From the NCBI GenBank assembly GCA_016705235.1, contig JADIYP010000005.1, positions 190,067 to 254,066 of the forward strand: DNA of 64,000 nucleotides, given 5' to 3'. Every line of letters starts with the position of its first letter. Within the stretch, counting starts at the first letter, position 1. Source of the DNA: Candidatus Leptovillus affinis (GTDB lineage: Bacteria; Chloroflexota; Anaerolineae; Promineifilales; Promineifilaceae). Below, one piece after another: positions 26,406 to 42,947 of the stretch. The notes beneath the pieces were generated by a model. That model searched no databases. It was not told where the DNA came from and saw nothing but the letters and a program-made list of their open reading frames with translations. A program made the translations under genes and the position numbers.

Positions 26406-26993
26406 TCAAAGCACATCGTTACAAAAGCGGTGAAACTCGCAATCCACGCAGCGAGCGGGTGTGTCGGGCGGGGCGGGTAGCTGCTGCGCCTGGGCGATGG
26501 CGGCCATTTGTGTCAACGCTTTGTCTAGTTGGCGCTGGAGATGGGCGGTGAACGGAACCGGCACAGCTTCGCGGTTGGGGATGAGGTAGAGGAAGCCGCG
26601 TTGGACGGGTTTGTCGGGGTGGAGTGTTTGCAAGAGACGGCCGTAAGCCAGCACCTGCATCTTAAAATGCGCCCCCACCTTCTTGGAATCCTTGTAATCT
26701 ACGGGGATTCGCTCCGCCTCCGTCTCGATGAGCATATCCAGCACCCCCGACAACTTCAGATCTGCCGACAGCAGCGGCACGTTAAACGAGCGTTCGCCAC
26801 TTGCCAGCCCATAAGTCCGCAACTGCCGCCGCTTCTCCCGCTCCTCCGCCTGGATGTGGGATTGGATGCCCGCCTCCATTTTATAGGTGATGGGGCGCAC
26901 ATCCGGCAGCACTGTCTGGTAATACAAAATGCGCGGGCAGTACACGTATTGCTTCAGGTCAATCACGCGGAAGGTGAAGGGGTCTTGGTCCAT
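26406..26993 (-). CDS. cas4: CRISPR-associated exonuclease Cas4
   Basis: N-terminal Cys (YVYCPRILYY), RecB-type motifs (DML...VDYKDSKK) and a C-terminal Cys cluster CVDCEFHRFC. Confidence 0.9.
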   Translation of the reverse strand: MDQDPFTFRVIDLKQYVYCPRILYYQTVLPDVRPITYKMEAGIQSHIQAEEREKRRQLRTYGLASGERSFNVPLLSADLKLSGVLDMLIETEAERIPVDYKDSKKVGAHFKMQVLAYGRLLQTLHPDKPVQRGFLYLIPNREAVPVPFTAHLQRQLDKALTQMAAIAQAQQLPAPPDTPARCVDCEFHRFCNDVL

Positions 26994-27020
26994 AGTTTGG
27001 TAGTCCTGTAGTTTGATGGT

Positions 27021-27126
27021 CTAGCAGTCTGTCGGAGAACCTCTTTTTGTAGCCGGGGTATCCTTACCCCGCCTCTGGAAGACGGTAAGAAACCGCGGCT
27101 ACGGGTACTTTCCGACAAACTGCTAG
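27021..27126 (+). repeat. Foldback (MITE-like) element, copy C (106 bp), inserted between cas2 and cas4
   Basis: Same sequence as 2032..2140 with 3 nt deleted. It is flanked on both sides by GTAGTC-word low-complexity sequence. Confidence 0.85.
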
Positions 27127-27215
27127 TAGTCTTGTAGTCTTGTAGTCGGGTAGTCGAATTGTCTGGTCGTGTGGCAAAAGCTATCCACCTCTTCCTATCA
27201 ACTCCCAACTCCCTA

Positions 27216-27458
27216 CTACCCACTATTCTCCATCCGATTCGCCCAATCCTTGCCGCAAATAGGGATGAGTTGGATGTTGCCTTCCTGCTTGCCCAGCAGG
27301 TCGGTGACTTTGCGGAAGAGTTCTTCCTGATAGTTGCGCGAGATGTCGCCACAAAAGGCGCTGTACTGGATGCGATCCAAACCGTAATCCAGGCAAGCAT
27401 CGGCGATTTTGGCGCGGATACGGTCGTCCACAATGTCGTAGATGAGCAGGCAGCGCAT
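27216..27458 (-). CDS. cas2: CRISPR-associated endoribonuclease Cas2
   Basis: MRCLLIYDIVDDRIRAKIADACLDYGLDRIQYSAFCGDIS... is a classic Cas2 N-terminus. The start is placed at the internal ATG at 27458; the track ORF extends into a repeat hairpin. Confidence 0.85.
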   Translation of the reverse strand: MRCLLIYDIVDDRIRAKIADACLDYGLDRIQYSAFCGDISRNYQEELFRKVTDLLGKQEGNIQLIPICGKDWANRMENSG

Positions 27459-27542
27459 GGGAATTTCGGATTTTTGATTTCGGATTTCGGATGGGGGGAT
27501 ATGCCGAAATCCCAAATCCCAAATCCGAAATCCTGAATCGTT

Positions 27543-28586
27543 TCACCAACTGGCGAGAAAGGGCGTGTAGGCGTCACGCTCGTTGCGGACGTAGGTGGCG
27601 ATGGTGCGGGCCTGCATCTGGATAATTGTGCGCAAGGGATAGCGCTTGTCGGCATATTTTTCCGGCGTTTCGAGCCGCGTCAGGATTTTTTCGGCCAGAA
27701 AGCGGCGAGTTTTCTCGGTGAGAAAGCCCTGTTCGTCCTGCTCGATTTTGACGCCTTTGTTGACCAGTCCCAGCACGGTGCGATCTACGGCCGGAGCGCG
27801 AAACTCCTCGATGAAATCCAGCGCCAGGCTGGGCTTGCCGGGCCGGTCGGTGTGGACGTAGCCGCCGTAGGGGTCCAATCCGGCCAGAACAACAGCGCGT
27901 TCGATCTGGCTGTAGAGGATGCCATAGCCGTAGTTGAGGGCGCTGTTAAAGGGGTCGCGGGCGCCGCGTCCTTCACGGCCGTTCCATTCCCATCCTTCCG
28001 GCAGCAGCAGCTTGATACCCCGCCAATACTTCTGCGCGGCGCGTCCTTCGATGGAGAGCAGCGGGCCGCGCACGTCGTCTATGTGGTAATGCTCGCGGGG
28101 GGCCAGAAAGTCCAGGGCGCAGAGTTCTTCCATGTGGTCGAGGATTTCCCCGGCCAGCCAGTGAAGGTCGCGGTGCAGGTCGGGATCGGTCTCCTTGCGA
28201 TATTTGGCGGCGTATTTGAGCAGGGTGGCCTGGTTCTGGATTTTGCCACCGGCGAAGGCGAGGGCCAGGTGGATGGCGCGCAGGTCGTTGTAGGCCGTTA
28301 GTTGGGCGCGGCGGGTGAGGACGGTGCCGGTGAGACCGGCGCTGTAGAGGCTGGCATAGGGGTTGCCGGTGCCACTGAGGAAGTGGATGGGGATGCCCTG
28401 GTCGGTGCAGGCGCGGATGGCGTCGGCGGAGATGGAGACGCCGTTGTTGGCAATGGTGACGGTTTCGAGGTGGAGCAGAGGGGCCTGGGCCAGGGTTTCT
28501 TTACCCTGGGTGATTTTGAGGCGGCCCTGGTATTTACCGACGTGGCTGCCGAACTGGTCGGCGATGAGGTGTTGGATAATGGGCAT
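27543..28586 (-). CDS. cas1: CRISPR-associated endonuclease Cas1
   Basis: DPFNSALNYGYGILYSQIERAVVLAGLDPYGGYVHTDRPGKPSLALDFIEEFR is the Cas1 catalytic core. Confidence 0.95.
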   Translation of the reverse strand: MPIIQHLIADQFGSHVGKYQGRLKITQGKETLAQAPLLHLETVTIANNGVSISADAIRACTDQGIPIHFLSGTGNPYASLYSAGLTGTVLTRRAQLTAYNDLRAIHLALAFAGGKIQNQATLLKYAAKYRKETDPDLHRDLHWLAGEILDHMEELCALDFLAPREHYHIDDVRGPLLSIEGRAAQKYWRGIKLLLPEGWEWNGREGRGARDPFNSALNYGYGILYSQIERAVVLAGLDPYGGYVHTDRPGKPSLALDFIEEFRAPAVDRTVLGLVNKGVKIEQDEQGFLTEKTRRFLAEKILTRLETPEKYADKRYPLRTIIQMQARTIATYVRNERDAYTPFLASW

Positions 28587-29404: not shown

Positions 29405-29638
29405 ATGAGTAAAGGTTTAGCCAGAGCCGAACGATTGCGCCAATTAGAGAAGAAGTATTTGTATGGTGCGTTCAACGACGAAGAAATGGCAGCGGCGATG
29501 GGCGTCGAAAGCCGAATTACCATCTACAAAGACCGTCAGTTGTTGCTGAAGAACGGTGTGCCTTTTGTGGAGACAGAACGAGGCCGCTGGAAGATTGATC
29601 GCCAAAAATACGTCTCGGAACTGCGGGTGAATGCATGA
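29405..29638 (+). CDS. HTH N-terminal fragment of a WYL-type regulator (split or frameshifted)
   Basis: EEMAAAMGVESRITIYKDRQLLLKNGVPF is HTH-like. The ORF ends at 29638 and overlaps the WYL ORF by 8 nt in another frame. Confidence 0.55.
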   Translation: MSKGLARAERLRQLEKKYLYGAFNDEEMAAAMGVESRITIYKDRQLLLKNGVPFVETERGRWKIDRQKYVSELRVNA

Positions 29639-30428
29639 AGCGGCGATGTTGTATCTGATGGCGCGTAAAGCGGCCCGGCAGACGCATGCACCCAATCCTC
29701 ATCTAGTCAATGTCTTGCGGACAATTGCCTTGAAGTTGCACCAACCCTTGATGGATCGGCTGATTACGGCGACAGATTTTATTCCCCAGGCAGAGGGGGC
29801 ATTGGAAGAAACGGCCGTTCTGGAAAAAATCGTCACCTGTTGGGTAGAGCAGCGCAAAGTCAGCATTCGTTACCGGGGGCTACAGTCGCAAAAGTCAACG
29901 GTTCACCTGGTCAGCCCTTATTTGCTGGAACCGTCGTTGTGGGGCGAAGGGATTTACCTGGTGGGCTATAGTGAAAAGCTGAACCGGATTGTGCCTTTCA
30001 AGTTAAATCGTATCGAAAAAGCGGCCGACACCACACAACCCATCATTGCATCGGACTCATTCAACGAACAGGAGTTTGTGCGCAACGTGTGGAGCATTTG
30101 GGATGGCGACGGAGAGTTGGTGACGGTGAAGCTGCGATTTCGGGGGGAAACGGCCGTGCGTCGGGTGCTAGAGAGTGTGTGGCATCCGAACCAGGCGGAA
30201 CCGGAGCGGCTGCCGAACGGGGATTTGATCTGGTCTACGCAGGTGGCGGAGTGGCGGGAGATGCTGCCGTGGATATGCGGGTGGGGGGCGGATTGCGAGG
30301 TGTTGGAACCGGTGACTTTGCGTGAAACGCTCATGGGGGAGGCAAAGGCTATGGCTGAACAATACGGCTGGTTTGTCAACAAGCAAGCCAATTCATCCAT
30401 AAGCGCGGCGTCTGATTTTTTTGGATGA
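29631..30428 (+). CDS. WYL-domain protein (C-terminal part of a CRISPR-associated HTH-WYL regulator)
   Basis: VSIRYRGLQSQKSTVHLVSPYLLEPSLWGEGIYLVGYSEKLNRIVPFKLNRIEKA is a WYL domain. It is followed by a WCX-like C-terminal region. Confidence 0.75.
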   Translation: MHEAAMLYLMARKAARQTHAPNPHLVNVLRTIALKLHQPLMDRLITATDFIPQAEGALEETAVLEKIVTCWVEQRKVSIRYRGLQSQKSTVHLVSPYLLEPSLWGEGIYLVGYSEKLNRIVPFKLNRIEKAADTTQPIIASDSFNEQEFVRNVWSIWDGDGELVTVKLRFRGETAVRRVLESVWHPNQAEPERLPNGDLIWSTQVAEWREMLPWICGWGADCEVLEPVTLRETLMGEAKAMAEQYGWFVNKQANSSISAASDFFG

Positions 30429-30434
30429 TGGCGA

Positions 30435-30794
30435 TCATTTTGCCGATTTCACGCGAATTTTGCGATCTGTGACCACGACAAGACAACCAGACCACTGCGC
30501 TACCGCTTCGCTGGTGAAGATCACTTCAACTTTCTGGATCAACTGTCGGCGAGTGGGGTTGTTGAGACGGAGCAACAAAACACCATGATGTGTACCGGGC
30601 TTGAAGTGCTGAACATTCGAGAAATCAAGGTCTTGGGTGATCAAAAAGCGATTCTCTGCTTGAGCCGCCTGCCAAACCTGATCATCATCCGCCCCGTCAA
30701 GATTTTCTTCCGGGACCGTTTCGGCATCATGCCCAAGCTGGCGCAGCATAACCGCCAATTCAACCGGCAGATTTTCATCCAGCTTGATCTGCAT
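30435..30794 (-). CDS. DUF5615 / Mut7-C-like PIN-fold putative toxin
   Basis: MQIKLDENLPVELAVMLRQLGHDAETV...DDDQVWQAAQAENRFLITQDLDF. Confidence 0.7.
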   Translation of the reverse strand: MQIKLDENLPVELAVMLRQLGHDAETVPEENLDGADDDQVWQAAQAENRFLITQDLDFSNVQHFKPGTHHGVLLLRLNNPTRRQLIQKVEVIFTSEAVAQWSGCLVVVTDRKIRVKSAK

Positions 30795-30796
30795 GG

Positions 30797-31030
30797 TTAT
30801 ACCGCCAGAACCATCGCTGGTATATCTTCGGCCGCAGAGTCAGCCGCAAAGGCAATCAAGGCCCAGATCGCTTCTTCAGTCAGTGTGGGAAAGCTGTGCA
30901 GAATGTCTTCCACACGGTCGCCTTCGGCCAGACTGCCTAAGATGGTGCGGATGGGGATACGGGTGCCTTTGACAACGGCCGTTCCGCCACAGATTTTAGG
31001 GTCGCGCACAATATAGTTTGTATAGTCCAT
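30797..31030 (-). CDS. DUF433 putative antitoxin
   Basis: IVRDPKICGGTAVVKGTRIPIRTILGSLAEGDRVEDILHSFPTLTEEAIWALIAFA. It lies 2 nt upstream of the DUF5615 gene. Confidence 0.75.
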   Translation of the reverse strand: MDYTNYIVRDPKICGGTAVVKGTRIPIRTILGSLAEGDRVEDILHSFPTLTEEAIWALIAFAADSAAEDIPAMVLAV

Positions 31031-31066: not shown

Positions 31067-33544
31067 ATGTCAAAACCGTATGTCTATCAACAGCAAGTTC
31101 AAGAAGCTCTGTTGCAAGGTCAAAATATCATCCTGCAAGCACCCACCGGGGCCGGCAAAACCCGCGCCGCGCTAACCCCATTTCTGGATACATTTTGGGA
31201 TGCGTCAGCCAGTGTCTTTCCTAAAAAGTGCGTTTACATTGTGCCCATGCGTGTCCTGGCAAATCAATTCACCGAAGAGGTACGCAAAAAAGCAGCGCGA
31301 TACGAACGTATCTATAAACGCCAACTTAACGTGGGACGACAAACTGGCGAATATAGGGAAGACCCCGAATTTCGCGCCGCCATTACCTTTGCCACCATTG
31401 ATCAGGTGTTGAGCAGTTGGCTGATGCACCCGTACAGCCTGTCGGCGCGGAAGGGAAACCTGAATACTGGCGCGTTTGTCGGTAGTTACCTAATTTTTGA
31501 TGAGTTCCACCTTTTCGATCCCGATTCTATGCTGCCAACAACGCTACATATGCTGAAAACCCTAAAAGGCGTAAGCCCTTTTGTGTTGATGACGGCGACC
31601 TTTTCTCAGGAAATGTTGCAAGAACTGGCGCAGGAATTGGGGGCAACGGCCGTTCTCCTTTCGCCCGACGATCTACAAAAGATCCCTTCGCAGCACAAAA
31701 CGCGCACCTTCCATACGGTAGACCGGCCTTTGGTAGGTGACGATGACGTATTCATTGACCAGATTGTGGCTGCGCACCTGGCACAAGAATCAGATGACCA
31801 GCGGTCTCTGGTGGTGTGTAACCAGGTAGAACGAGCGCAACGTGTGTATCAGGCATTGACGCGACATCCTGACCTGACCGATGTTACCGTGCGCCTGCTG
31901 CACAGCCGCTTTTTGCGTGCAGACCGGCAAAAGATTGAGGCAGAAATCCGGCGCGAGTTCAATAAAGAGCGGGCACAGCATACGCAGCGCAGCATGATTT
32001 TGGTAGGTACACAGGTAGTGGAAGTAGGATTGGATATGAGCAGCCGCGCTTTACATACGGAACTGGCTCCGGCAGCGGCCGTTTTGCAGCGGGCGGGGCG
32101 ATGTGCGCGGTATGAAGGGGAAGAAGGCCATGTGTATGTCTACCGCCTAGAACCGGAAAGTTATGCGCCGTACCACAACCGTTATGCCGCTGAACAATGC
32201 GACCTGACCTGGGAATGGCTGCAAACCCATCAAGACCACCACCTTTCTTTCCAGGATGAACAAGCCCTCATCAACCATGCCCACACGCCATCAGACCGTA
32301 ATATCCTCAAAGGACTAAAAGCAGGTGAACTGGACCATGAACGTGAAATCTACGTAATCTGGCGCGGTGATGGCAATCGTGGCGAGGCGCAAAAGCTGAT
32401 ACGCAACATTCAGGCAGTGTCCATTGTTGTTCACCCTGAACCAGACAAACTGGTTTCTGCGCCTTTCAAAGTTGAGAGCTTCTCCCTTTTTCCCGGCACG
32501 TTACATGGCAAATTCAAGGAGTGGCAAAAACACAATAATGCTACCGATGAATTTTTCGATGAAGGCCATTTAGAATGGTTGATCCGAAGGCTTGAGGAGC
32601 TGCCGGACAGTGAAGAAGACGCGCAAGGAAATCAGGTGGTGCGTTATGGTTTCAAAGATGTAACATCGTCGGCTGCTTTGCATGGGCCGCTGTTTGCTGT
32701 TAATCCAGCGTTGGTCGGTTATACGCCGGAGATGGGATTAACTTTATATCCGGGAGCGCCGTATACATGTTCAACGCCAGAGCAAGACAAAGGCGCAGCA
32801 GCGCAAAGTCCGGCACATAGTTCCAGGTTAGAAAGCTACTGTCGGCATATCGAACTGGTACATGAAGCCTTTCGGGATGATTTTTTACGGCCGTTAGCCC
32901 AAAGCGCCGTTCGCCTGGAAAAGGCATTTAGCTGGTCGCCAGGCATTATCGCCGAAACAGCCCATCTGGTTATTTGCCTGCATGACGTGGGCAAACTCAA
33001 CAACCAGTGGCAGCAGTGGGTGCGGAACTGGCAAAAACAAACGGGGCAGGTATATGAAAAAGATGGCGTTTACGCCCATTGGGACGGAGATGGTTCGGAA
33101 ACCCACCGGACGCTGGAACGAAAGCTAAAAAGGCAGCGCCCCCACCACGCGATTGAAGGGGCCATCGCCAGTATTCCTTTGCTGGAGGCTGTTATTCCCG
33201 AAAGCTGCGAACCACTTCTTCGAGCGGCGTTCACGGCCGTTGCCCGCCATCATACCACCTTTGCCAGCGAGGCAAGCAATTATCGCTTGATCCCTACGTA
33301 TCGGGCAGAGATAGACAAGACGCTGCAATTGCCACAAGTGCCGGTTACTTTATTCACAAAATGCCAGGGCGTGCCAATTGAAGATCGCATTGAGGCGAAT
33401 TTGCCTTTACAAAGAGAATTACAGGAGAACTATTTTATTCGTGAGACGAATCAGGAAGATATGTGCAGCTATATGCTTTTGGTGCGGGCTTTGCGTCTGG
33501 CCGACCAAAAAGGGACGGAACGCGGTTCACGGGACGCGAGTTAA
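31067..33544 (+). CDS. cas3: Cas3 helicase with a C-terminal HD nuclease domain
   Basis: Motif I ILQAPTGAGKTRAAL and motif II LIFDEFHLFD, with helicase C motifs. The HD-type residues lie only near the C-terminus (LVICLHDVGKLNNQW, ...RHHTTF). Confidence 0.85.
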   Translation: MSKPYVYQQQVQEALLQGQNIILQAPTGAGKTRAALTPFLDTFWDASASVFPKKCVYIVPMRVLANQFTEEVRKKAARYERIYKRQLNVGRQTGEYREDPEFRAAITFATIDQVLSSWLMHPYSLSARKGNLNTGAFVGSYLIFDEFHLFDPDSMLPTTLHMLKTLKGVSPFVLMTATFSQEMLQELAQELGATAVLLSPDDLQKIPSQHKTRTFHTVDRPLVGDDDVFIDQIVAAHLAQESDDQRSLVVCNQVERAQRVYQALTRHPDLTDVTVRLLHSRFLRADRQKIEAEIRREFNKERAQHTQRSMILVGTQVVEVGLDMSSRALHTELAPAAAVLQRAGRCARYEGEEGHVYVYRLEPESYAPYHNRYAAEQCDLTWEWLQTHQDHHLSFQDEQALINHAHTPSDRNILKGLKAGELDHEREIYVIWRGDGNRGEAQKLIRNIQAVSIVVHPEPDKLVSAPFKVESFSLFPGTLHGKFKEWQKHNNATDEFFDEGHLEWLIRRLEELPDSEEDAQGNQVVRYGFKDVTSSAALHGPLFAVNPALVGYTPEMGLTLYPGAPYTCSTPEQDKGAAAQSPAHSSRLESYCRHIELVHEAFRDDFLRPLAQSAVRLEKAFSWSPGIIAETAHLVICLHDVGKLNNQWQQWVRNWQKQTGQVYEKDGVYAHWDGDGSETHRTLERKLKRQRPHHAIEGAIASIPLLEAVIPESCEPLLRAAFTAVARHHTTFASEASNYRLIPTYRAEIDKTLQLPQVPVTLFTKCQGVPIEDRIEANLPLQRELQENYFIRETNQEDMCSYMLLVRALRLADQKGTERGSRDAS

Positions 33545-33931
33545 GCCAGCCATTTGCTCAATATGATGATCGAAAGAGAAAACGGCCGTTACCCCCATTT
33601 GCTGCGCCAGCGCCAACAAAGAGCAATCGGGGTAGCTCCAATCCTTATCGGCGTAACGGCTAAAAAGCGACCAGATGACTTGACGCATGTCATCGGTCAA
33701 AGGAACAAGCTGAAATTGGGCGCTTGCCTGAATGCTTTCACCCAATTGAATCGCTTGCCTGCTGCCCAAACGCGCCTTAATCAGCGTCATAGTTTCGGCA
33801 AAGATGAATTCTGGGATGAAGAAAACAGCCTCTCTGTTAGCCAGGGCAAACTGTTTGGCGACCGGATGAAACCTATCTTTGGCGTTCAACAGCGCCAGAA
33901 ACGCGCCAGAATCAATAATGAATTGGGGCAT
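33527..33931 (-). CDS. vapC: PIN-domain toxin VapC
   Basis: MPQFIIDSGAFLALLNAKDRFH...FSFDHHIEQM is PIN-type. It overlaps the cas3 3' end by 18 nt on the opposite strand. Confidence 0.8.
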   Translation of the reverse strand: MPQFIIDSGAFLALLNAKDRFHPVAKQFALANREAVFFIPEFIFAETMTLIKARLGSRQAIQLGESIQASAQFQLVPLTDDMRQVIWSLFSRYADKDWSYPDCSLLALAQQMGVTAVFSFDHHIEQMAGLTRVP

Positions 33932-33933
33932 AA

Positions 33934-34260
33934 TTATGACGACTTGTTGTTGATCCGCACGGCCTGCCCGTCACTACCCCGACGATACCTTTGGGGCGCA
34001 ATTTCCCAGGCGTGCAACTCCTGCGCTTCCGCGCTCATCATGTCCGCCAACAAATATAAATCTGGGTCCTGGCTGACAGGAATGCCATCAATCAACGGTT
34101 TTTCGCTGCTGAATGCACCAATGAGATCAAAAACGGGATCGGTTATCTCTACCTCACTGCGCTCAATGTGCAGCCGAACCCGCGTCCGGTTGGGCAGTTT
34201 AAGCGGGGTTAACGGCCGTAATACCCCATTTTCATATACGGCCGTAATTATTTCGCTCAT
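33934..34260 (-). CDS. Antitoxin (AF2212/DUF104-like N-terminus) paired with VapC
   Basis: MSEIITAVYENGVLRPLTPLKLPNRTRVRLHIE. It lies 2 nt upstream of vapC. I prefer the ATG at 34260 to the one at 34284. Confidence 0.7.
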   Translation of the reverse strand: MSEIITAVYENGVLRPLTPLKLPNRTRVRLHIERSEVEITDPVFDLIGAFSSEKPLIDGIPVSQDPDLYLLADMMSAEAQELHAWEIAPQRYRRGSDGQAVRINNKSS

Positions 34261-34344
34261 GATCTGTCTCCCGTTCCATAACATCCAGTACTCTCTAATG
34301 AGTCTGATTCCATATTCTGGAATTAACGTTATGAAAACAATAAT

Positions 34345-34468: not shown

Positions 34469-34711
34469 ATGGGAAAAAAATTAAACGATATGAGCGAAAT
34501 TTTACAAGAACACGATGTCTGTCAATCATATGAAACGCTTGTTGAATCCATTTATCAATCACGAATAACGCTTAACGAATTGGTGAGCGCCGATTTAACA
34601 TTGCACCCACCGATTATTATATACATTATGCGGGATGTTCGTGGCTGTGTAAAGTCGCTTATGCCTTATCTGGAGCAACTTTCAGCGCACATGGAGGATG
34701 CGTATGAGTAA
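34469..34711 (+). CDS. Hypothetical small protein upstream of and overlapping the cas8-like gene
   Basis: 80-aa ORF that looks more AT-rich by eye than its neighbours, has no clear Shine-Dalgarno and matches no family I recognise. It may not be expressed. Confidence 0.25.
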   Translation: MGKKLNDMSEILQEHDVCQSYETLVESIYQSRITLNELVSADLTLHPPIIIYIMRDVRGCVKSLMPYLEQLSAHMEDAYE

Positions 34712-36530
34712 CAACCATTTTATCATAGACAAAATCACGGGTACGTTCGCAGATGATTTGCTCGCTGCCGGTTTCATGGCTGTGTTAGATAACCTGTATC
34801 GTCGGCAGGTCGGCATAGCCAATATGACACAAGTGGATTGTGGTCATTATTATCAGATAATGGCCGATGCGCCGTTAGACTTGGAAAAGGTGCAGCGCGA
34901 GGCTGAATTTTTTATCGGCGCAAGATTCCTGCGTACCGAGGGCAATAAAGACAAATTGCCAACCGGCTTACCCGAAGCATACTTTGTGGATTACAAAGAA
35001 AAACGGGATGAGCGCAACGCTTTTTTCGATGCCCTGAACACTTTAGAAAAAACGGTGAGTAAGGCGTATTGGCGCGGCGACGAAGAGGTGCTGGCTTATT
35101 TGCCCACACCCCCTGATCGCCACTACGACATTTACCGGATGATGAACAGCCCAACAACGCTCATTGGCTACACGCGGCTGGTGAATCAGTGGGTGCAGGT
35201 GGGGGAAAGCGGCCGTACCGGTGACGTGTGTTACCTGTTGTGCCAGATGTTCAGCAGCGATGCAGACGGCCGTTATCAGCCCAACGATGTGGCAGCGGCC
35301 GTCGCCGCCTGGAAAGACATTGCCAAAACCGAGCAATGGCCGCTAAATGACACAATCACAACCGCCAGCCAGGTTCTCAATCCGGCGCAAGGCAAAGGCG
35401 TCAACCGTCCTAAGCCGGATGGGGTATCTCCCACAAATCTATCTGGCTTTTGGTTGTTAGAGTGGCTTAAACTGGTCGGCTTTTACCAGATCGGGTTAAC
35501 GGCCGTGCTGCGCGACAGTAGCGACCGCAAAACCTATGTCCCCGCCGCCGGACGCATGACCATCCGCACCCGCGAGCAGATCGACATCCGCTTTCGTAAC
35601 CTTACCCGCGCCAACGAAAGCGCCACCCGCGCCGACATCCTCACCGTGCTGCAATACCTTAGAGCATTCATCCGCGTTACCAGGGAAGCCCAAGAGCAGC
35701 CCGACATGCCCCAACTGCGCTTTAGCCGCCACCGTTCGGTCCGCCCCGCCGACTTCATTCATGGCTTCCACGTCGCCTTTTATAAGAATTTGGGTAACGC
35801 GGCGGCCGTCATGAACATGGCCTTTCTTAATTTGCCCGGTTGGGTACAAATCCATAATGCGGACGAAGCCCAACAATTTCTGGACATTTTGGACGAACAC
35901 GCCGGCATCGTCCGGCAGTTTGCCGAAAACAAAGGCGACGAACTTGATCTCCTCGGCCAATACCGTGACTTCGTTGTCGCCGACAATCTGGACCCATTTT
36001 TTGAATTCAATACTGCCTACAGCAGTTGGCTAATCAGCGCCGGGGAGAAGCCAGGCTTCCCACCGCGTAAATTTTCCACCCACAATTTAAGGAGGTTACT
36101 TGTGAGCGTACAACATGATTTAAGTGACATTGTAGAATCGCCCGGTTTCATTAATATTGCTCGCGCTATTCGTGAAAGCACAGTTCGGGCACAGTACCGT
36201 AAGAACCAAAAGAATGATAAACGGTACACCGTTCGCTACGGTTTGGGGCGTGATTTGGTGCGCAAAGCGTATCACCGCGAAGAATTTGTCGCCGCTCTTA
36301 GCGAATTCTTGCTGACTTATAACGCTGAAAATGCTCAGGTTTTAGAGCGTTATCCAAAAGACAAATACCCCCAATATAAATATCGGTGGGATGTTCAGAC
36401 GGGCGACATTAAAGATATTTTGTCTCTAATAGACAAGTATTCCAATCCCCCCGATCTTATCGCCAAACTACTGGTGGCTTATGGGTATGCAAGTGATTAT
36501 CAAGCCAAAAGCGAGGAGGAAGCCGAATGA
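34704..36530 (+). CDS. Cas8-like large Cascade subunit (positional call; possibly Cmx8/DevT/Cst1-like)
   Basis: About 608 aa, the first gene of the effector operon, immediately before the cas7 and cas5 genes. GGAGG lies 6 nt before the ATG at 34704. I can name no diagnostic motif. Confidence 0.55.
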   Translation: MSNNHFIIDKITGTFADDLLAAGFMAVLDNLYRRQVGIANMTQVDCGHYYQIMADAPLDLEKVQREAEFFIGARFLRTEGNKDKLPTGLPEAYFVDYKEKRDERNAFFDALNTLEKTVSKAYWRGDEEVLAYLPTPPDRHYDIYRMMNSPTTLIGYTRLVNQWVQVGESGRTGDVCYLLCQMFSSDADGRYQPNDVAAAVAAWKDIAKTEQWPLNDTITTASQVLNPAQGKGVNRPKPDGVSPTNLSGFWLLEWLKLVGFYQIGLTAVLRDSSDRKTYVPAAGRMTIRTREQIDIRFRNLTRANESATRADILTVLQYLRAFIRVTREAQEQPDMPQLRFSRHRSVRPADFIHGFHVAFYKNLGNAAAVMNMAFLNLPGWVQIHNADEAQQFLDILDEHAGIVRQFAENKGDELDLLGQYRDFVVADNLDPFFEFNTAYSSWLISAGEKPGFPPRKFSTHNLRRLLVSVQHDLSDIVESPGFINIARAIRESTVRAQYRKNQKNDKRYTVRYGLGRDLVRKAYHREEFVAALSEFLLTYNAENAQVLERYPKDKYPQYKYRWDVQTGDIKDILSLIDKYSNPPDLIAKLLVAYGYASDYQAKSEEEAE

Positions 36531-36739
36531 AACGCACGGCCGTTTCCTCCAGCAATCTCGCTTCAGTTGGTTACGATCCCGCCAGCCAATCTCTGGAAAT
36601 CGAGTTTACAACGGGTCGGGTTTATGAATACTTTGATGTTCCCCAACAAACCTATGACAAGTTGATGGCGGCTGAGTCACACGGCCGTTACTTCAATGCC
36701 TATATTCGTGACAATTACCATTACACAAGAATTCGATAA
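36527..36739 (+). CDS. KTSC-domain protein embedded in the Cascade operon
   Basis: SSNLASVGYDPASQSLEIEFTTGRVYEYFDVPQQTYDKLMAAESHGRYFNAYIRDNYHYTRI matches the KTSC (lysyl-tRNA synthetase C-terminal-like) domain pattern. Its start overlaps the cas8 stop (ATGA). Confidence 0.75.
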   Translation: MKRTAVSSSNLASVGYDPASQSLEIEFTTGRVYEYFDVPQQTYDKLMAAESHGRYFNAYIRDNYHYTRIR

Positions 36740-36751
36740 GGAGAACTAACC

Positions 36752-37729
36752 GTGTCCATTTATTCCATTTCCCTCTCTGCCCAACTCACCCTGGATATGC
36801 ACAGCCTCAACAACGAAGGCGGCGAAGGCAACCAGATTCAAACCCGCATGGTCAACATCGTGGATGGCAACGGCCGTTTGCAAAACGTCAATGCCATCTC
36901 CGGCGACATGATTAAGCACATCCTGGCCGAGCATCTGCACCGCATTGCTACCGCCAACGGCCTGCCCCTATGCGCCGGTTGTAAAACCTTTAATGCCAAC
37001 CGCATCAGCGCCGATGAAAGCTACATGGCCGCCATCGCCAACATGAACGACGCCGACTCGTTAACATTGATGCTGGAAACATGCGCTATGGATGATATGC
37101 TGGGCAACCTGATCACGGCCGGTTCCAAATCTTTGCCGCGCAAATCGGTGGTTGAGTTTGGATGGGTGGTCGGTTTGCCCGAACTGACCCGTTCCGATAG
37201 CTATTTTCACGTCAAGTATTCCAACGAACGGGGAAAAGCTGAACGAGATGCCCAAAAAGGCGAAGAATCACGCGGGGCAAATTTGGGGCAAGCCATCTTC
37301 CATCGGCCGGCCAACAGCGGCGTGTACGCCCTGGTTGCTACCATCGAAGCGGCGCGTATTGGCTTCAACGACATTACGCAGAAATATGTGTTAGATGAAG
37401 CCCAACGACAGGCGCGATTGAAAGCCTTGCTCGAAGCCCTTCTCTACACCCTCATGGAACCGGCCGGAGCCATGCGCGGCACTCAAGCCCCCCACATCGT
37501 AGACGTGGCCGGGGTGATCACCGTCAGCCAAAACGTCATTCCCGCGCCCACCCTCAGCCCGCTCAAAGGAGGGTACGATCAGGAATTAACCGACCTGTGC
37601 GCGACGCTGAACAGCATTCGGCCCAACGCTCTGGCAGCCCACTCCTTCAGTTCAATGAACGGCTACGCCCAAACCGTGCGCGACCTCATCCAAAGTGCCA
37701 CGCCGTACACGTTGCAATATGCAGGTTGA
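36752..37729 (+). CDS. cas7: Cas7 backbone subunit, DevR/Cst2/Csa2 type
   Basis: SISLSAQLTLDMHSLNNEGGEGNQIQTRMVNIVDGNGRLQNVNAISGDMIKHILAEHL is the DevR-family signature. A GTG start follows AAGGAG. Confidence 0.85.
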   Translation: MSIYSISLSAQLTLDMHSLNNEGGEGNQIQTRMVNIVDGNGRLQNVNAISGDMIKHILAEHLHRIATANGLPLCAGCKTFNANRISADESYMAAIANMNDADSLTLMLETCAMDDMLGNLITAGSKSLPRKSVVEFGWVVGLPELTRSDSYFHVKYSNERGKAERDAQKGEESRGANLGQAIFHRPANSGVYALVATIEAARIGFNDITQKYVLDEAQRQARLKALLEALLYTLMEPAGAMRGTQAPHIVDVAGVITVSQNVIPAPTLSPLKGGYDQELTDLCATLNSIRPNALAAHSFSSMNGYAQTVRDLIQSATPYTLQYAG

Positions 37730-37794: not shown

Positions 37795-38484
37795 ATGATA
37801 TGGATACAAGCAATTTACCAGCCGACCACCCTGTTTAGCTTACGGCCGTCCTGGACAACCTCATCCGGGGGTAAAAGTCTGCTGCTGCCGTCGCCTTACG
37901 CGCTGAAAACGGCCGTTCTCGACGCCGCCATTCGCACCAGTGGTTTGGGGCAAGCCGAGCAAGCCTGGCCCTGGATACGCGACATGGGCATCGGCGTGCA
38001 ACTACCGCCACAAATCGTCGTCACCAACCTGTTCGCCAAAATTCTGCGCCTGCGCCGCAATCCGGCTACACCCGGTTCTGCTGATGTTGGCCCTTTCCAG
38101 AAAACCATCGCCTATCGCGAATATGTCTACCATCCACAACCGATCACCCTGGCTTTTGCTGTCCCCGATGGTCAGGCGGCGCAGCTTGGCGATTGGCTGG
38201 CGCAAATTAGCTATCTGGGCAAGCGCGGCGGCTTTGTGCAACTGTTGGCCCCTCCTATACCCCTGGCCGATAGCGCTGGCTTTGTGTTATTGACAGCCGA
38301 CGTTACCAGCTTCCCCCTCAATGGCCTGGTACAACAGCTAGACGATTGTGATCCGAAGATGAAATTTGTGGAGGCGAACATTTACGACAGCAAAAAGCCA
38401 AAGCGGGTGGTGCGGCATGTGGTCTTACCCTACCGGCTGGCAAAATCCAGCCGCGCCTATTCCCTCTACCAACACACCGGCTAA
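37795..38484 (+). CDS. cas5: Cas5-like Cascade subunit
   Basis: 229 aa, directly after cas7. The N-terminus FSLRPSWTTSSGGKSLLLPSPYALKTAVLDAAIR fits the Cas5 RAMP N-terminal pattern. The call is mainly positional. Confidence 0.55.
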   Translation: MIWIQAIYQPTTLFSLRPSWTTSSGGKSLLLPSPYALKTAVLDAAIRTSGLGQAEQAWPWIRDMGIGVQLPPQIVVTNLFAKILRLRRNPATPGSADVGPFQKTIAYREYVYHPQPITLAFAVPDGQAAQLGDWLAQISYLGKRGGFVQLLAPPIPLADSAGFVLLTADVTSFPLNGLVQQLDDCDPKMKFVEANIYDSKKPKRVVRHVVLPYRLAKSSRAYSLYQHTG

Positions 38485-38544: not shown

Positions 38545-38847
38545 CTAAACCGTCTCATGCACAAGCACATCCCGCTCAATTTGCGCGCCCACCTCATCTT
38601 GCGCCACGTCCAGATCGTAGTCAAGTTGCAGGCCAAGCCAGAATTGCGCCGATGTGCCAAAAAATCGCGCTAAACGCAAAGCCGTATCGGCCGTAATCCG
38701 TCGCCGACCATGAATGATCTCATTAATCCGTCGCGTCGGCACACGCATCGCCAGAGCGAGTTTGTTCTGGCTAATATCCATTGGCAGCAAAAATTCTTCC
38801 AACAAGACTTCACCCGGATGTAATGGAGGTATTTTATTATTCGCCAT
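38545..38847 (-). CDS. higA: HigA antitoxin (XRE-family HTH)
   Basis: HPGEVLLEEFLLPMDISQNKLALAMRVPTRRINEIIHGRRRITADTALRLARFFGTSAQFWLGLQLDYDL. Confidence 0.85.
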   Translation of the reverse strand: MANNKIPPLHPGEVLLEEFLLPMDISQNKLALAMRVPTRRINEIIHGRRRITADTALRLARFFGTSAQFWLGLQLDYDLDVAQDEVGAQIERDVLVHETV

Positions 38848-38899
38848 TTCAGCACCTTCTTAAGCTAATTGTGCTGAAACACAGGTTAATACTATCAGT

Positions 38900-38922
38900 G
38901 TTTCAGTAATCTCTGGCGATTC
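38900..38922 (-). repeat. Orphan CRISPR half-repeat (23 nt identical to the 3' part of the repeat, minus-strand orientation) between higB and higA
   Basis: The plus strand reads GTTTCAGTAATCTCTGGCGATTC. Adjacent CTGAAACAC (38873..38881) can pair with GTGTTTCAG (38898..38906). Confidence 0.9.
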
Positions 38923-38956
38923 AAGCTGACTCGAAATGAATCAACTAGACACTGAT

Positions 38957-39238
38957 TTAATGATAATCAACAATTTCTACAGCATGGGCATCACCATCGC
39001 GCCATTCAAAACAGATTCGCCATTGTTGATTGACCCGAATGCTATATTGGCCCGCTCGATCACCATGCAATTGCTCCAATCGGTTACTCGGCGGTATGCG
39101 CAAATCGTCCAAAGAGACCGCCCGATTGAGCATACGAAGTTTCCGAAATGCGCGTTGTTGAATATCTTGAGGCAGCTTACGAGAAAATTCTCGATGAAAA
39201 ATCCTTTCTGCTTCCCGATCCCGAAAGTTGCGAATCAT
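38957..39238 (-). CDS. higB: HigB toxin (RelE/ParE superfamily, plasmid maintenance killer type)
   Basis: MIRNFRDREAERIF...LDDLRIPPSNRLEQLHGDRAGQYSIRVNQQWRICFEWRDGDAHAVEIVDYH. Confidence 0.85.
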   Translation of the reverse strand: MIRNFRDREAERIFHREFSRKLPQDIQQRAFRKLRMLNRAVSLDDLRIPPSNRLEQLHGDRAGQYSIRVNQQWRICFEWRDGDAHAVEIVDYH

Positions 39239-39330: not shown

Positions 39331-40359
39331 ATGACCAACCTACAACTCACCCACCTTCGCTTCGACTGCACCGCCACCACACCCATCAAAATGGGCAGCC
39401 ATTACGCCGGTAACAACCTGCGCAACGCCCTCGCCAACGTCATGCGCCGCGCCACCTGCCCCGAATACCGCACCAATCGCCCGCCCGAACCCGCCCACGC
39501 AGCCACCTGCCCCGCCTGCTGGCTGCTCTCGGCCAACCTCGACCCTGGCACCGTCATCCGCGCCTACGCCGTCGCGCCACCCCTCCCGCCCCGCAGCTAC
39601 CTCCAAGCCGGTGAGCGCTTCAGCTTCGCCCTCACCCTCTTCGGCGACGGCTTCCACTACCTGCCCTACGTCGTCCTGGCCGCCAACGAGGCCGGACAAA
39701 GCGAAGGCATTGGCCCAGGCCGGCGCGAAGGGCTGGGCCGATTTGCCGTGGACAGGATAACGGCCGTAGACCCCCTGCGCGGCGACATGCAATCTTGCCT
39801 GGCCCCCGGCGACGCCTTCGTGACTGTACCCAATCTGTTTGTAGACGAAACGGCCGTGCGCCACATCAGCCAGATGCACCACCAAGCCCTCAACGGCCGT
39901 CATCTCACCCTTCACTTCCTCACCCCCACGCGGCTGGAAGAGAAAGGGCAGCTCTACAAACTGCCTGATTTCTCCGTCCTCTTCCGGCGCTTGCTCTACC
40001 GCATAGACGAATTGGGCCGCCAGTTTGCCGGGCAAGAGCGGCGCGATCCAGCCGAGGTGGCCCATCTTCACGCCCTGGCCGACAGCGTGCGCCTGGTAGA
40101 TGCGCAAACCGACTGGCAAGAAATGTGGGTCTACTCCGGGCGCAAGGGCGAGAAAACGCCCTTGAGCGGCTTTACCGGCACGGCCGTCTACCGCAGCGAC
40201 GATTGGACCGAGCTGCTGCCCTGGCTGGTATGGGGTCAGGCGACCCACGTCGGAAAATCAGTTGTCAAGGGCAACGGCGTCTACGAATTAGGGGGTGGAA
40301 ACTGGCCTCCCTACTGGGATTGGCTGCGCGCCGACCACCTGTGGGAAGCTGCGACCTGA
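39331..40359 (+). CDS. cas6: Cas6-like crRNA endoribonuclease (large, MYXAN/Cmx6-like)
   Basis: It lies immediately upstream of the array leader. The C-terminal glycine-rich loop HVGKSVVKGNGVY fits the Cas6 G-h-G-x5-G-h-G pattern. It has a Cys-rich insert, CPEY...CPACW. Confidence 0.6.
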   Translation: MTNLQLTHLRFDCTATTPIKMGSHYAGNNLRNALANVMRRATCPEYRTNRPPEPAHAATCPACWLLSANLDPGTVIRAYAVAPPLPPRSYLQAGERFSFALTLFGDGFHYLPYVVLAANEAGQSEGIGPGRREGLGRFAVDRITAVDPLRGDMQSCLAPGDAFVTVPNLFVDETAVRHISQMHHQALNGRHLTLHFLTPTRLEEKGQLYKLPDFSVLFRRLLYRIDELGRQFAGQERRDPAEVAHLHALADSVRLVDAQTDWQEMWVYSGRKGEKTPLSGFTGTAVYRSDDWTELLPWLVWGQATHVGKSVVKGNGVYELGGGNWPPYWDWLRADHLWEAAT

Positions 40360-40531: not shown

Positions 40532-42947
40532 GTCGCCCCACCAGAGAATCGCCAGAGATTACTGAAACACTCGGCCCCAGAGATGCCAGAGATGCACGGT
40601 CGCCCCACCAGAGAATCGCCAGAGATTACTGAAACACTTCTGCCCGGCAGCCATTGCCATGTGCTGTAGCGGACGGTCGCCCCACCAGAGAATCGCCAGA
40701 GATTACTGAAACACAACATGAGGCTTACGGCCGTCAGCTTTCGCTGACATTGGTCGCCCCACCAGAGAATCGCCAGAGATTACTGAAACGCCGTCCGGGT
40801 GGCCCCCCAGAGAATCGCCAGAGATTACTGGAATTGCGGACTCCTGTGAGTTCCCTGCGGTCGCCCCACCAGAGAATCGCCAGAGATTACTGAAACATCT
40901 CCCCAGACGCTCGAATAGTTTCCCTGACCAGGGTCGCCCCACCAGAGAATCGCCAGAGATTACTGAAAACCCCGGGGGGTGAGCGGGGGGAGGGCGCGGG
41001 GGGTCGCCCCACCAGAGAATCGCCAGAGATTACTGAAACACGCGAATCGGCGACCAGCCGCCGACCATCGGGTCGCCCCACCAGAGAATCGCCAGAGATT
41101 ACTCACACGCGCGGGGCGAGGGTCGCCCCACCAGAGAATCGCCAGAGATTACTGAAACTACTTTGGTTTTTCTTCTTGCTTTGGTTGCAGGTCGCCCCAC
41201 CAGAGAATCGCCAGAGATTACTGAAGGGGACCAGAGAATCGCCAGAGATTACTGAAACTGGTGGGTGATGATTGTTGTGTTCATCTCCATGGGCTGGTCG
41301 CCCCACCAGAGAATCGCCAGAGATTACTGAAACACCTGGCAGCCATCGCTTATCGTGTCTGGTTTGGGTCGCCCCACCAGAGAATCGCCAGAGATTACTG
41401 AAACAGACAAAACCCAGGGCCTGTCGCCCCACCAGAGAATGCCAGAGATACGAAAACAAGGTCGCCGCCCCACCAGAGAATCGCCAGAGATTACTGAAAC
41501 ACCGCCTGGCAGCCATCGTGCGCGGCGGGTCGCCCCACCAGAGAATCGCCAGAGATTACTGAAACGACGTCATACGCTGGAACGACAAAGGCAAATTGTA
41601 GGTCGCCCCACCAGAGAATCGCCAGAGATTACTGAAACAGTGTAGTCTAGTGTCGGCCAGCTTTTGCGCGTCGGTCGCCCCACCAGAGAATCGCCAGAGA
41701 TTACTGAAAACGGATTGCAGCATGCGGCACGCACCGTTCCCGCTGGGTCGCCCCACCAGAGAATCGCCAGAGATTACTGAAACGCTGACCACGCACTTTG
41801 CGCCGATATCGTCGAGGTCGCCCCACCAGAGAATCGCCAGAGATTACTGAAACGCCGGCGGGGTGGGTTGGCTGGGCTGCGCTTAGAAGGTCGCCCCACC
41901 AGAGAATCGCCAGAGATTACTGAAACTGGAGCTTAATTTTATATCGGCCGGCCAGCCGTTGGGTCGCCCCACCAGAGAATCGCCAGAGATTACTGAAACT
42001 CTGGAGGTCGCCTCCCGGCCACAGAGCAAAGGAGGAGGTCGCCCCACCAGAGAATCGCCAGAGATTACTGAAACACAATAAGAGGGGCGACTGGCAATTT
42101 TACGTGCCGCGTCGCCCCACCAGAGAATCGCCAGAGATTACTGAAACCGACTTTGACGGCATCCATTTTGACGGCTCGCCAAGGTCGCCCCACCAGAGAA
42201 TCGCCAGAGATTACTGAAACGTAACCGAAGCCATAGAAACCAACACACCCAGAAGTCGCCCCACCAGAGAATCGCCAGAGATTACTGAAACAGATAACGT
42301 CAGGCATGTGGCAGGCCGGGCACCAGGTCGCCCCACCAGAGAATCGCCAGAGATTACTGAAACAGAATCATAGCGCCGCAGCCGCCCAGCAGCATGGCCG
42401 TCGCCCCACCAGAGAATCGCCAGAGATTACTGAAACATTTGGTCTTAATCGTTTTGGCGAACTGGCCAAAGTCGCCCCACCAGAGAATCGCCAGAGATTA
42501 CTGAAACACCAGTGGCAAGGGTACGATCTTTGGCTGGTCGATACGTCGCCCCACCAGAGAATCGCCAGAGATTACTGAAACGGCACGCCCGGCCCCATTG
42601 GTGGAGCTGGTAGCACAGTCGCCCCACCAGAGAATCGCCAGAGATTACTGAAACACGAAAATCTACTGCTCTAAATCGTGCCGAGTTGCTATAGTCGCCC
42701 CACCAGAGAATCGCCAGAGATTACTGAAACATGTGTGGCTTAAATACAGCCTAGGGTCTGTCCATTGTCGCCCCACCAGAGAATCGCCAGAGATTACTGA
42801 AACGTTACACTCCCCATCGCCCACCATCGTTAACGAAAGTCGCCCCACCAGAGAATCGCCAGAGATTACTGAAACCGCAGCTTGCAACCGACCTTGACGA
42901 ACTGGCAACAGTCGCCCCACCAGAGAATCGCCAGAGATTACAGTGTT
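40532..42947 (+). CRISPR. CRISPR array with about 36 repeat units of 37 nt (GTCGCCCCACCAGAGAATCGCCAGAGATTACTGAAAC); spacers mostly 32-40 nt
   Basis: I delimited every unit by hand. 27 units are canonical and about 9 are variant, partial or degenerate. Most variants fall between 40801 and 41500; the terminal unit at 42911 has a degenerate 3' end. Orientation is inferred from the 3' ...GAAAC and from the leader position. All track ORFs within 40438..43124 are artefacts. Confidence 0.95.

Follow-up and report, generated by a model that had tools for sequence, protein, structure and literature searches.

The 64,000-nt stretch analyzed here, hereafter called the window, belongs to contig JADIYP010000005.1 of the Chloroflexota member Candidatus Leptovillus affinis and carries a type I CRISPR-Cas locus in which a small gene for a KTSC-domain protein lies between cas8 and cas7 (table 1). 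The Pfam family PF13619 (KTSC) covers the product of this gene from end to end (model positions 1-58 of 58, E=1.6e-27, 95.4 bits against a cutoff of 25 bits), in agreement with the open reading frame (ORF) of 70 aa picked out in a preliminary description of the same DNA. Among the proteins of known structure, the product aligns at full length with a KTSC protein of 70 aa (PDB 7x8c, E=2.2e-18), and it also matches 4rgi (E=1.3e-12) and the C-terminal 68 residues (629-696) of HerA in the SIR2-HerA system of Paenibacillus (8wiv, E=1.4e-19). The family-invariant core is kept, namely S8, S9, N10, L11, G15, Y16, L23, E24, F27, G53 and F56, and a central aromatic YxY motif is present as Y33-E-Y35. The initial ATG (36527-36529) overlaps the TGA of cas8 (36528-36530) in an ATGA junction, as stated in the preliminary description, while the terminal TAA (36737-36739) overlaps the Shine-Dalgarno (SD) sequence AAGGAG of cas7 (36738-36743). 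The two neighbors are likewise those named earlier, as judged by profile matches on both sides and by structural comparison for Cas8, even if the spacing to cas7 is 12 nt and not 13 nt. Judged from these sequence features, the ORF represents a genuine, expressed gene of the KTSC family, and because it appears to be translationally coupled to both cas8 and cas7, its product would be made together with the subunits of Cascade. A frameshift fusion of Cas8 or Cas11 to KTSC was considered and rejected, since the junction contains no slippery sequence and the geometry of the overlap differs in two related loci, L119 and L093 (about 20 nt).

Table 1. Coordinates (window numbering) of the KTSC gene, its signals and the surrounding CRISPR-Cas features
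Feature	Coordinates	Strand	Basis
KTSC-domain gene, 70 aa	36527..36739	+	Pfam PF13619, PDB homologues, same-slot orthologues, dN/dS
SD sequence of KTSC, GAGGAGG	36513..36519	+	inside cas8 3' end, 7 nt before KTSC ATG
cas8 large subunit, 610 aa, Cas8a-like	34698..36530	+	PADLOC Cas8a E=3.8e-51; AlphaFold (AF2) and Foldseek
Predicted nested cas11, 142 aa, 16.6 kDa, all-helical	36102..36530	+	internal in-frame GTG; SD AAGGAGG 36089-36095
cas7, DevR/Csa2 family, GTG start	36752..37729	+	Pfam DevR E=3.3e-70; PADLOC Cas7 E=2.5e-61, Cas7a 2.3e-33
cas5, Cas5a-like	37795..38484	+	PADLOC Cas5a E=3.9e-58
cas6	39331..40359	+	Pfam CRISPR_Cas6 E=6e-16; PADLOC Cas6 E=2.3e-60
cas3, helicase N-terminal, HD C-terminal, 825 aa	31067..33544	+	Pfam DEAD, Cas3-like_C_2, Cas3_HD; best NCBIfam/PADLOC = Cas3g
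CRISPR array, 32 copies of 37-nt repeat GTCGCCCCACCAGAGAATCGCCAGAGATTACTGAAAC	40532..42875	+	32 matches vs 0 expected by chance
Adaptation module: cas4 26406-26993, cas2 27216-27515, cas1 27543-28586	26406..28586	-	Pfam Cas_Cas4, CRISPR_Cas2, Cas_Cas1

To follow the KTSC gene among related operons we combined a census of GTDB species representatives with look-ups of exactly matching proteins. A pattern scan of the GTDB representatives with the Cas8 alignment recovered 35 loci, corresponding to about 30 distinct operons, of which a single one contains KTSC; in the remaining operons cas7 follows cas8 after 2-81 nt. The same cas8-KTSC-cas7 arrangement, with the start of KTSC overlapping the cas8 stop, was found for the proteins P0002 (81% identical; loci L004, L005 and L006), P0003 (74%; L007), P0007 (75%; L044 and L045), P0011 (67%; L046-L048) and P0009 (66%; L049), and a scan with the KTSC alignment added the cas-linked loci L119 and L093. 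There are consequently at least seven distinct cas-linked KTSC genes, those of the window, L004, L007, L044, L046, L049 and L119. The junctions are also retained: L004, L007, L044 and L046 show the same start and stop overlap with cas8, an SD within cas8 and a KTSC stop codon lying on the cas7 SD, the purine-rich SD-like stretch before the KTSC start being GAGGAGG in L007, L044 and L046 and AAGGAGA in L004. The overlap between KTSC and cas8 is longer in L119, where cas7 has its own SD.

About 29 of the orthologous operons lack KTSC, comprising all those sampled at greater distance (about 22) and about seven within the same clade (L001, L002, L009, L013, L014, L015 and L032). Close sister pairs differ in this respect, as in L001 (without KTSC) versus L007 (with KTSC) and in L134 (without an intact gene) versus L046. 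Absence from orthologous cas operons, which the preliminary description had named as grounds for refutation, hence holds for most of them but not within one sub-clade; moreover, the term 'small-subunit slot' that had been used for the interval between cas8 and cas7 is inappropriate, given that cas8 abuts cas7 in most orthologous operons. The next-closest homologue of the window protein, P0004 (74% identical), comes from another genome and lies in the order ruvC-ruvA-KTSC-thyX. As a separate observation, the contig of locus L018 (QMSU01000149.1) carries a full orthologous cas8-cas7-cas5 set and is binned as a Thermoplasmata archaeon metagenome-assembled genome (MAG), while nearly all other loci belong to Chloroflexota and L021 is labelled only 'bacterium'; this placement suggests either mis-binning or inter-domain transfer.

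Pairwise comparison of the seven cas-linked KTSC genes gives synonymous divergence (dS) of 1.2 to >3, near saturation, with nonsynonymous divergence (dN) of 0.1-0.3 and dN/dS ratios of 0.05-0.18, and such ratios at nearly saturated synonymous sites indicate that the gene is translated and under purifying selection. In neighbor-joining (NJ) trees, which are here built from short or recombining proteins, all the cas-linked KTSC proteins among 167 sequences fall in one clade of 11 tips, which is joined by P0004, whereas the trees of Cas7 and Cas8 limit the KTSC-bearing operons to one clade in which they are interleaved with operons devoid of the gene. The residues that set the cas-linked proteins apart are only K2 and E42, so that there is no clear sign of neofunctionalization.

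Traces of loss are visible in the sequences. The KTSC gene of L093 is a pseudogene with an in-frame TAA at the position of the invariant Y33 and a frameshift, while the 79-nt spacer between cas8 and cas7 in L134 reads VKRTP followed by GSYFYHNSRDSYRYKKI, that is, KTSC minus codons ~6-52, a deletion scar whose remnant is most similar to the KTSC of its sister L046. In sisters cleanly devoid of KTSC, such as L001, the cas8 stop occupies the position of the KTSC stop elsewhere, directly on the cas7 SD (TAAAAGGAGA...GTG vs TAAGGAGA...GTG). These sequences would be most simply accounted for by a single insertion in the ancestor of the clade, with repeated losses thereafter. Of a different kind is the Cas8 of L007, which is nearly identical in pattern to that of the KTSC-less L001 over most of its length and follows the variant of the window in the last ~70 residues; this mosaic appearance suggests that the 3' end of cas8 and KTSC were exchanged together by recombination, a process that may thus have contributed to the distribution of the gene. 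A recent phage origin of the window gene is unlikely, for KTSC was found in 55 of 50,697 phage records and all 55 are <60% identical to it.

With regard to the small subunit of the complex, profile searches (Pfam, NCBIfam and PADLOC) detected no separate csa5 or cas11 gene in the operon, and the alignment of 36 cas8 orthologues points to a different source. A start codon occurs at the column of V469 (GTG 36102) in 35 of the 36 sequences and an upstream SD in 34, this being the sole column of the alignment that combines both signals in more than one-third of the sequences, and the signals are found irrespective of whether the operon has KTSC. At the nucleotide level, tAAGGAGG or tGGAGGtg is kept despite differences in the encoded residues (LRRL, LEVL or ERL), and the two Arg codons within the nested SD of the window are AGG, which is otherwise rare (93 of 1489 Arg codons). 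The products predicted from the orthologues would have 133-170 aa. That of the window (residues 469-610) is modeled by AF2 with helices only (pLDDT 85.5), and its best Foldseek TM-scores, 0.40-0.42, are to chains of 131-133 aa in type I-A Cascades (9crp_H, 9crq_L), with E ~1 and probability 0.33-0.41, which are not significant values; PDB profile searches with the alignments of Cas8 and of the nested Cas11 returned matches at chance level only, for instance a small terminase with E ~0.01. On these grounds, the most likely source of the small subunit is a cas11 nested within cas8 and translated from an internal start, as previously shown for systems of types I-B, I-C and I-D (McBride et al. 2020, bioRxiv 10.1101/2020.04.18.045682; Haloferax I-B, PMC11899642).

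Two other features of this region were evaluated and set aside. Had the long loop seen in one variant of the nested Cas11 region (ERYPKDKYPQYKYRW) been exclusive to KTSC-bearing operons, it would have suggested co-evolution with KTSC, but the operons of P0095 (L130) and P0100 (L134) have it as well, without an intact KTSC. An ORF of 80 aa (34469-34711), which overlaps the start of cas8 by 14 nt, was considered as an alternative small subunit and discarded, for it has neither family matches nor a tblastn homologue in related loci; it is dissimilar to the ORF of 77 aa that L130 has in the same position, where L002 has an ORF of 171 aa.

The locus as a whole is a complete type I CRISPR-Cas system of an I-A-like variant. 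The AF2 model of Cas8 (pLDDT 87.6, pTM 0.88) has as its sole significant PDB matches in Foldseek the Cas8b proteins of I-B Cascades (8h67_L, 8ip0_J) and the Cas8a of type I-A (7tr6_C), and the database homologues of this Cas8 all come from MAGs or metagenomes of Chloroflexota type, all annotated as hypothetical. Cas8, Cas5 and Cas7 are nearest to I-A models whereas Cas3 is nearest to those of type I-G, producing a hybrid subtype architecture in which the split cas3'/cas3'' of type I-A is replaced by a single protein. Genes for a helix-turn-helix (HTH) protein, a DUF4258 protein and a WYL regulator lie between the adaptation module and cas3. The last of these (WYL/WCX, 29405-30428) is split into two overlapping ORFs of 77 aa and 265 aa in different frames, while its L004 counterpart is one protein of 342 aa, whose residues 1-77 and 79-341 tblastn locates in different frames of the window; the split would be explained by a frameshift mutation near 29631-29638 or by an error of assembly there. 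Three pairs resembling toxin-antitoxin modules are interspersed among the cas genes, all on the minus strand (30435-31030, 33527-34284 and 38545-39238), and consist of DUF5615/PIN_10 with DUF433, PIN with an AF2212-like protein and HigB with an HTH antitoxin; related operons (L007, L044, L046 and L134) also contain the DUF433 pair ahead of cas3 and, in the cas5-cas6 interval, the HigBA pair. The CRISPR array is irregular, with two repeats (41072-41108 and 41122-41158) only 13 nt apart, several repeats with degenerate 3' ends and ~30-106 nt between the repeats detected.

Elsewhere, the genomic context of the KTSC family is predominantly one of defense. Of the 80 KTSC loci of GTDB representatives most similar to our query, 77 are not cas-linked, and in 30 of these a defense-type HerA ATPase lies directly upstream on the same strand (Pfam DUF87/HerA_C; PADLOC HerA E=5e-168). 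An ATPase-TOPRIM nuclease of the OLD/GajA type adjoins KTSC in nine of the 77 (downstream in eight and upstream in one), a HEPN_Swt1 protein in two and, as judged by eye from the sequence, an N6-methyltransferase-like protein in three, and a protein of 343 aa is common to eight loci. (A second ORF of ~71 aa, MERYANRTGNSPITHYQ...YSYSY..., without match in Pfam, adjoins KTSC in several loci of Bacteroidota, namely L053, L056, L076 and L095, and may be a divergent KTSC-like partner.) The Aravind group has described KTSC as a DNA-binding protein that is coupled to HerA and an endoDNase (PMC9503650), and in 8wiv, where KTSC is fused to HerA, the C-terminal arm domain that includes it (aa 576-696) wraps around the neighboring subunit (PMC11472057). 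Furthermore, an archaeal protein of the family is reported, in the title of the article, to bind single-stranded DNA (ssDNA) (Tian et al. 2022, Int J Biol Macromol 216:618; cited in PMC11237433); this is probably the protein of 7x8c. The statement in the preliminary description that KTSC has no known function is therefore outdated with respect to both this title and the link to HerA defense (PMC9503650). No literature linking KTSC to CRISPR or Cascade was found in the library that we searched.

The interpretation that we favor, and to which we assign about an even chance of being correct, is that KTSC is translated together with the interference module and serves it as an optional accessory that binds ssDNA, not as a core subunit. 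An accessory role was among those initially suggested, and it is upheld by the recurrence of the same slot, coupling and purifying selection in at least seven lineages. The gene would have been inserted once, precisely between the cas8 stop and the ribosome-binding site of cas7, in one sub-clade of Chloroflexota operons; purifying selection would then have retained it in some lineages and deletion removed it from others, a pattern that would befit an optional accessory rather than a core subunit. The cas-linked protein has probably retained the activity general to the family, which is reported to be ssDNA binding, because all family-invariant residues are conserved and clade-specific substitutions are nearly lacking. 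It may thus act on the ssDNA exposed by the R-loop of Cascade or by the unwinding of Cas3, stabilizing or handing over the displaced strand, in a role that by analogy would parallel that of KTSC beside HerA translocases.

Various considerations weigh against this interpretation. The cas-linked KTSC proteins are neutral to acidic (isoelectric point, pI, 4.8-6.8), which is atypical of DNA binders, and the ssDNA-binding activity invoked for them is taken from one title; contact of KTSC with Cascade, Cas3 or DNA in the system of the window is something that we infer by analogy. The material for comparison consists entirely of MAGs and metagenome contigs. Since the gene has been lost repeatedly, the operon evidently functions, or at any rate endures, without it, and the near absence of clade-specific residues implies that its conservation could reflect a function unrelated to CRISPR, while the paralogue with 74% identity stands in the housekeeping context of ruvC-ruvA-KTSC-thyX.

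Some of the same facts lend support to the strongest rival explanation, according to which the function of KTSC is a general one in the cell, perhaps in the repair or recombination of DNA, and the cas operon serves only for its expression, with no contribution to CRISPR immunity. The close paralogue following ruvA in another genome, the lack of divergence in the core residues of cas-linked copies and the repeated loss are all compatible with such a hitch-hiker, as is the ease with which the cas locus takes up small foreign cassettes, exemplified by the three toxin-antitoxin pairs. Those pairs, however, are separate units on the opposite strand, whereas the slot and both couplings of KTSC have remained unchanged over at least seven lineages while synonymous sites became saturated, and relocation of the gene within the locus was never seen. 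In addition, the dominant context of the family is defense (HerA, OLD and HEPN) and not housekeeping. We consequently deem this explanation rather unlikely, if far from negligible. A comparably low likelihood attaches to the stronger version of a CRISPR role, in which KTSC would be a physical, sub-stoichiometric or optional subunit of Cascade that binds the displaced non-target strand or the C-terminus of Cas8/Cas11 and thereby modulates the loading of Cas3.

Less probable still is that KTSC works as a modulator or brake, sequestering ssDNA or a surface of Cascade so as to limit Cas3 loading and self-targeting, or regulating the translation of cas7 post-transcriptionally. As is typical of regulators, KTSC is dispensable and patchily distributed, a WYL regulator is already present in the locus, and the position of the KTSC stop on the cas7 SD physically ties the translation of KTSC to the initiation of cas7; yet the SD context of cas7 is essentially identical in the KTSC-less L001, no regulatory activity of KTSC is known and positive and negative action are indistinguishable by the present data. 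We consider it very improbable that KTSC is an adaptor coupling Cascade to an ATPase or nuclease of HerA type encoded elsewhere in the genome. HerA is indeed the most frequent partner of KTSC, which occurs as a separate downstream gene or as a fusion, but tblastn with two HerA queries found no HerA in the 64-kb window, none was found in the 3-8 kb on each side of the gene in KTSC-bearing loci with annotated genes, and the cas-linked clade is not nested within the HerA-linked KTSC groups of the NJ tree.

The possibility of a Cas11 substitute, which the preliminary description had listed beside an accessory and a hitch-hiker, and in which KTSC would replace the helical small subunit in the belly of the complex, can be considered largely refuted by the comparative data and hence scarcely credible: although the position between cas8 and cas7 and the coupling would suggest stoichiometric co-expression, a family reported as ssDNA-binding could in principle hold the non-target strand and the operon lacks a recognizable csa5/cas11 gene, KTSC is missing from the ~29 orthologous operons, including close sisters, has been lost by deletion and matches no Cas11, Csa5 or Cse2 model in PADLOC or NCBIfam, and the conserved internal SD and start in cas8, which would yield a helical product with or without KTSC, imply that it is not needed as a substitute.

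The composition of type I Cascade is regarded as well catalogued. The accessory gene found here in a Cascade operon, restricted to one lineage, had not been described before. If the favored interpretation of an optional accessory is valid, a conserved, co-translated KTSC in the interval from cas8 to cas7 would add a new accessory to the components of Cascade and would link CRISPR effectors in evolution with HerA-type defense, in which KTSC is frequent but mechanistically unexplained. The interest of the gene would increase if KTSC proved to be a physical partner of Cascade in common with HerA defense systems, for then the same ssDNA-binding module would serve both HerA defense and a CRISPR effector, as a kind of Cascade accessory not described before. 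Operons with an intact gene, a pseudogene, a deletion scar or no KTSC form a natural series of controls for the contribution of KTSC to interference. The nested cas11 predicted for this Cas8a-like family is relevant to the reconstitution and typing of these Chloroflexota systems.

The locus can be compared with several known systems. As in the I-B, I-C and I-D systems with a cas11 nested in cas8 or cas10d, a conserved in-frame SD and start lie ~140 codons before the cas8 stop and would give a small helical product, whereas the I-A-like case of Chloroflexota is predicted from sequence and its structural match to Cas11 is not significant. Type I-A Cascade (Cas8a/Csa5/Cas7a/Cas5a; PDB 7tr6, 9crp) provides the best profiles for Cas8, Cas5 and Cas7 and the structural match of the Cas8 model with 7tr6_C; in contrast to it, the window has no csa5, a single fused Cas3 with the helicase preceding HD as in type I-G and, in common with one sub-clade, a KTSC gene. 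The archaeal ssDNA-binding KTSC protein resembles the window protein in being a single domain of ~70 aa that aligns at full length (E=2e-18), even if it is basic (pI ~8.9 for the aligned sequence) versus the pI of 4.8-6.8 of cas-linked KTSC. Finally, the upstream partner in the window is Cas8 or nested Cas11 and not the HerA ATPase of the HerA-based anti-phage systems (HerA-KTSC-nuclease; SIR2-HerA, 8wiv), with which the operon nevertheless shares the same domain (50-60% identity, E=1e-19 to the C-terminus of HerA), the presence of a small gene just downstream of, and tightly coupled to, a large defense protein and an immunity that targets DNA.

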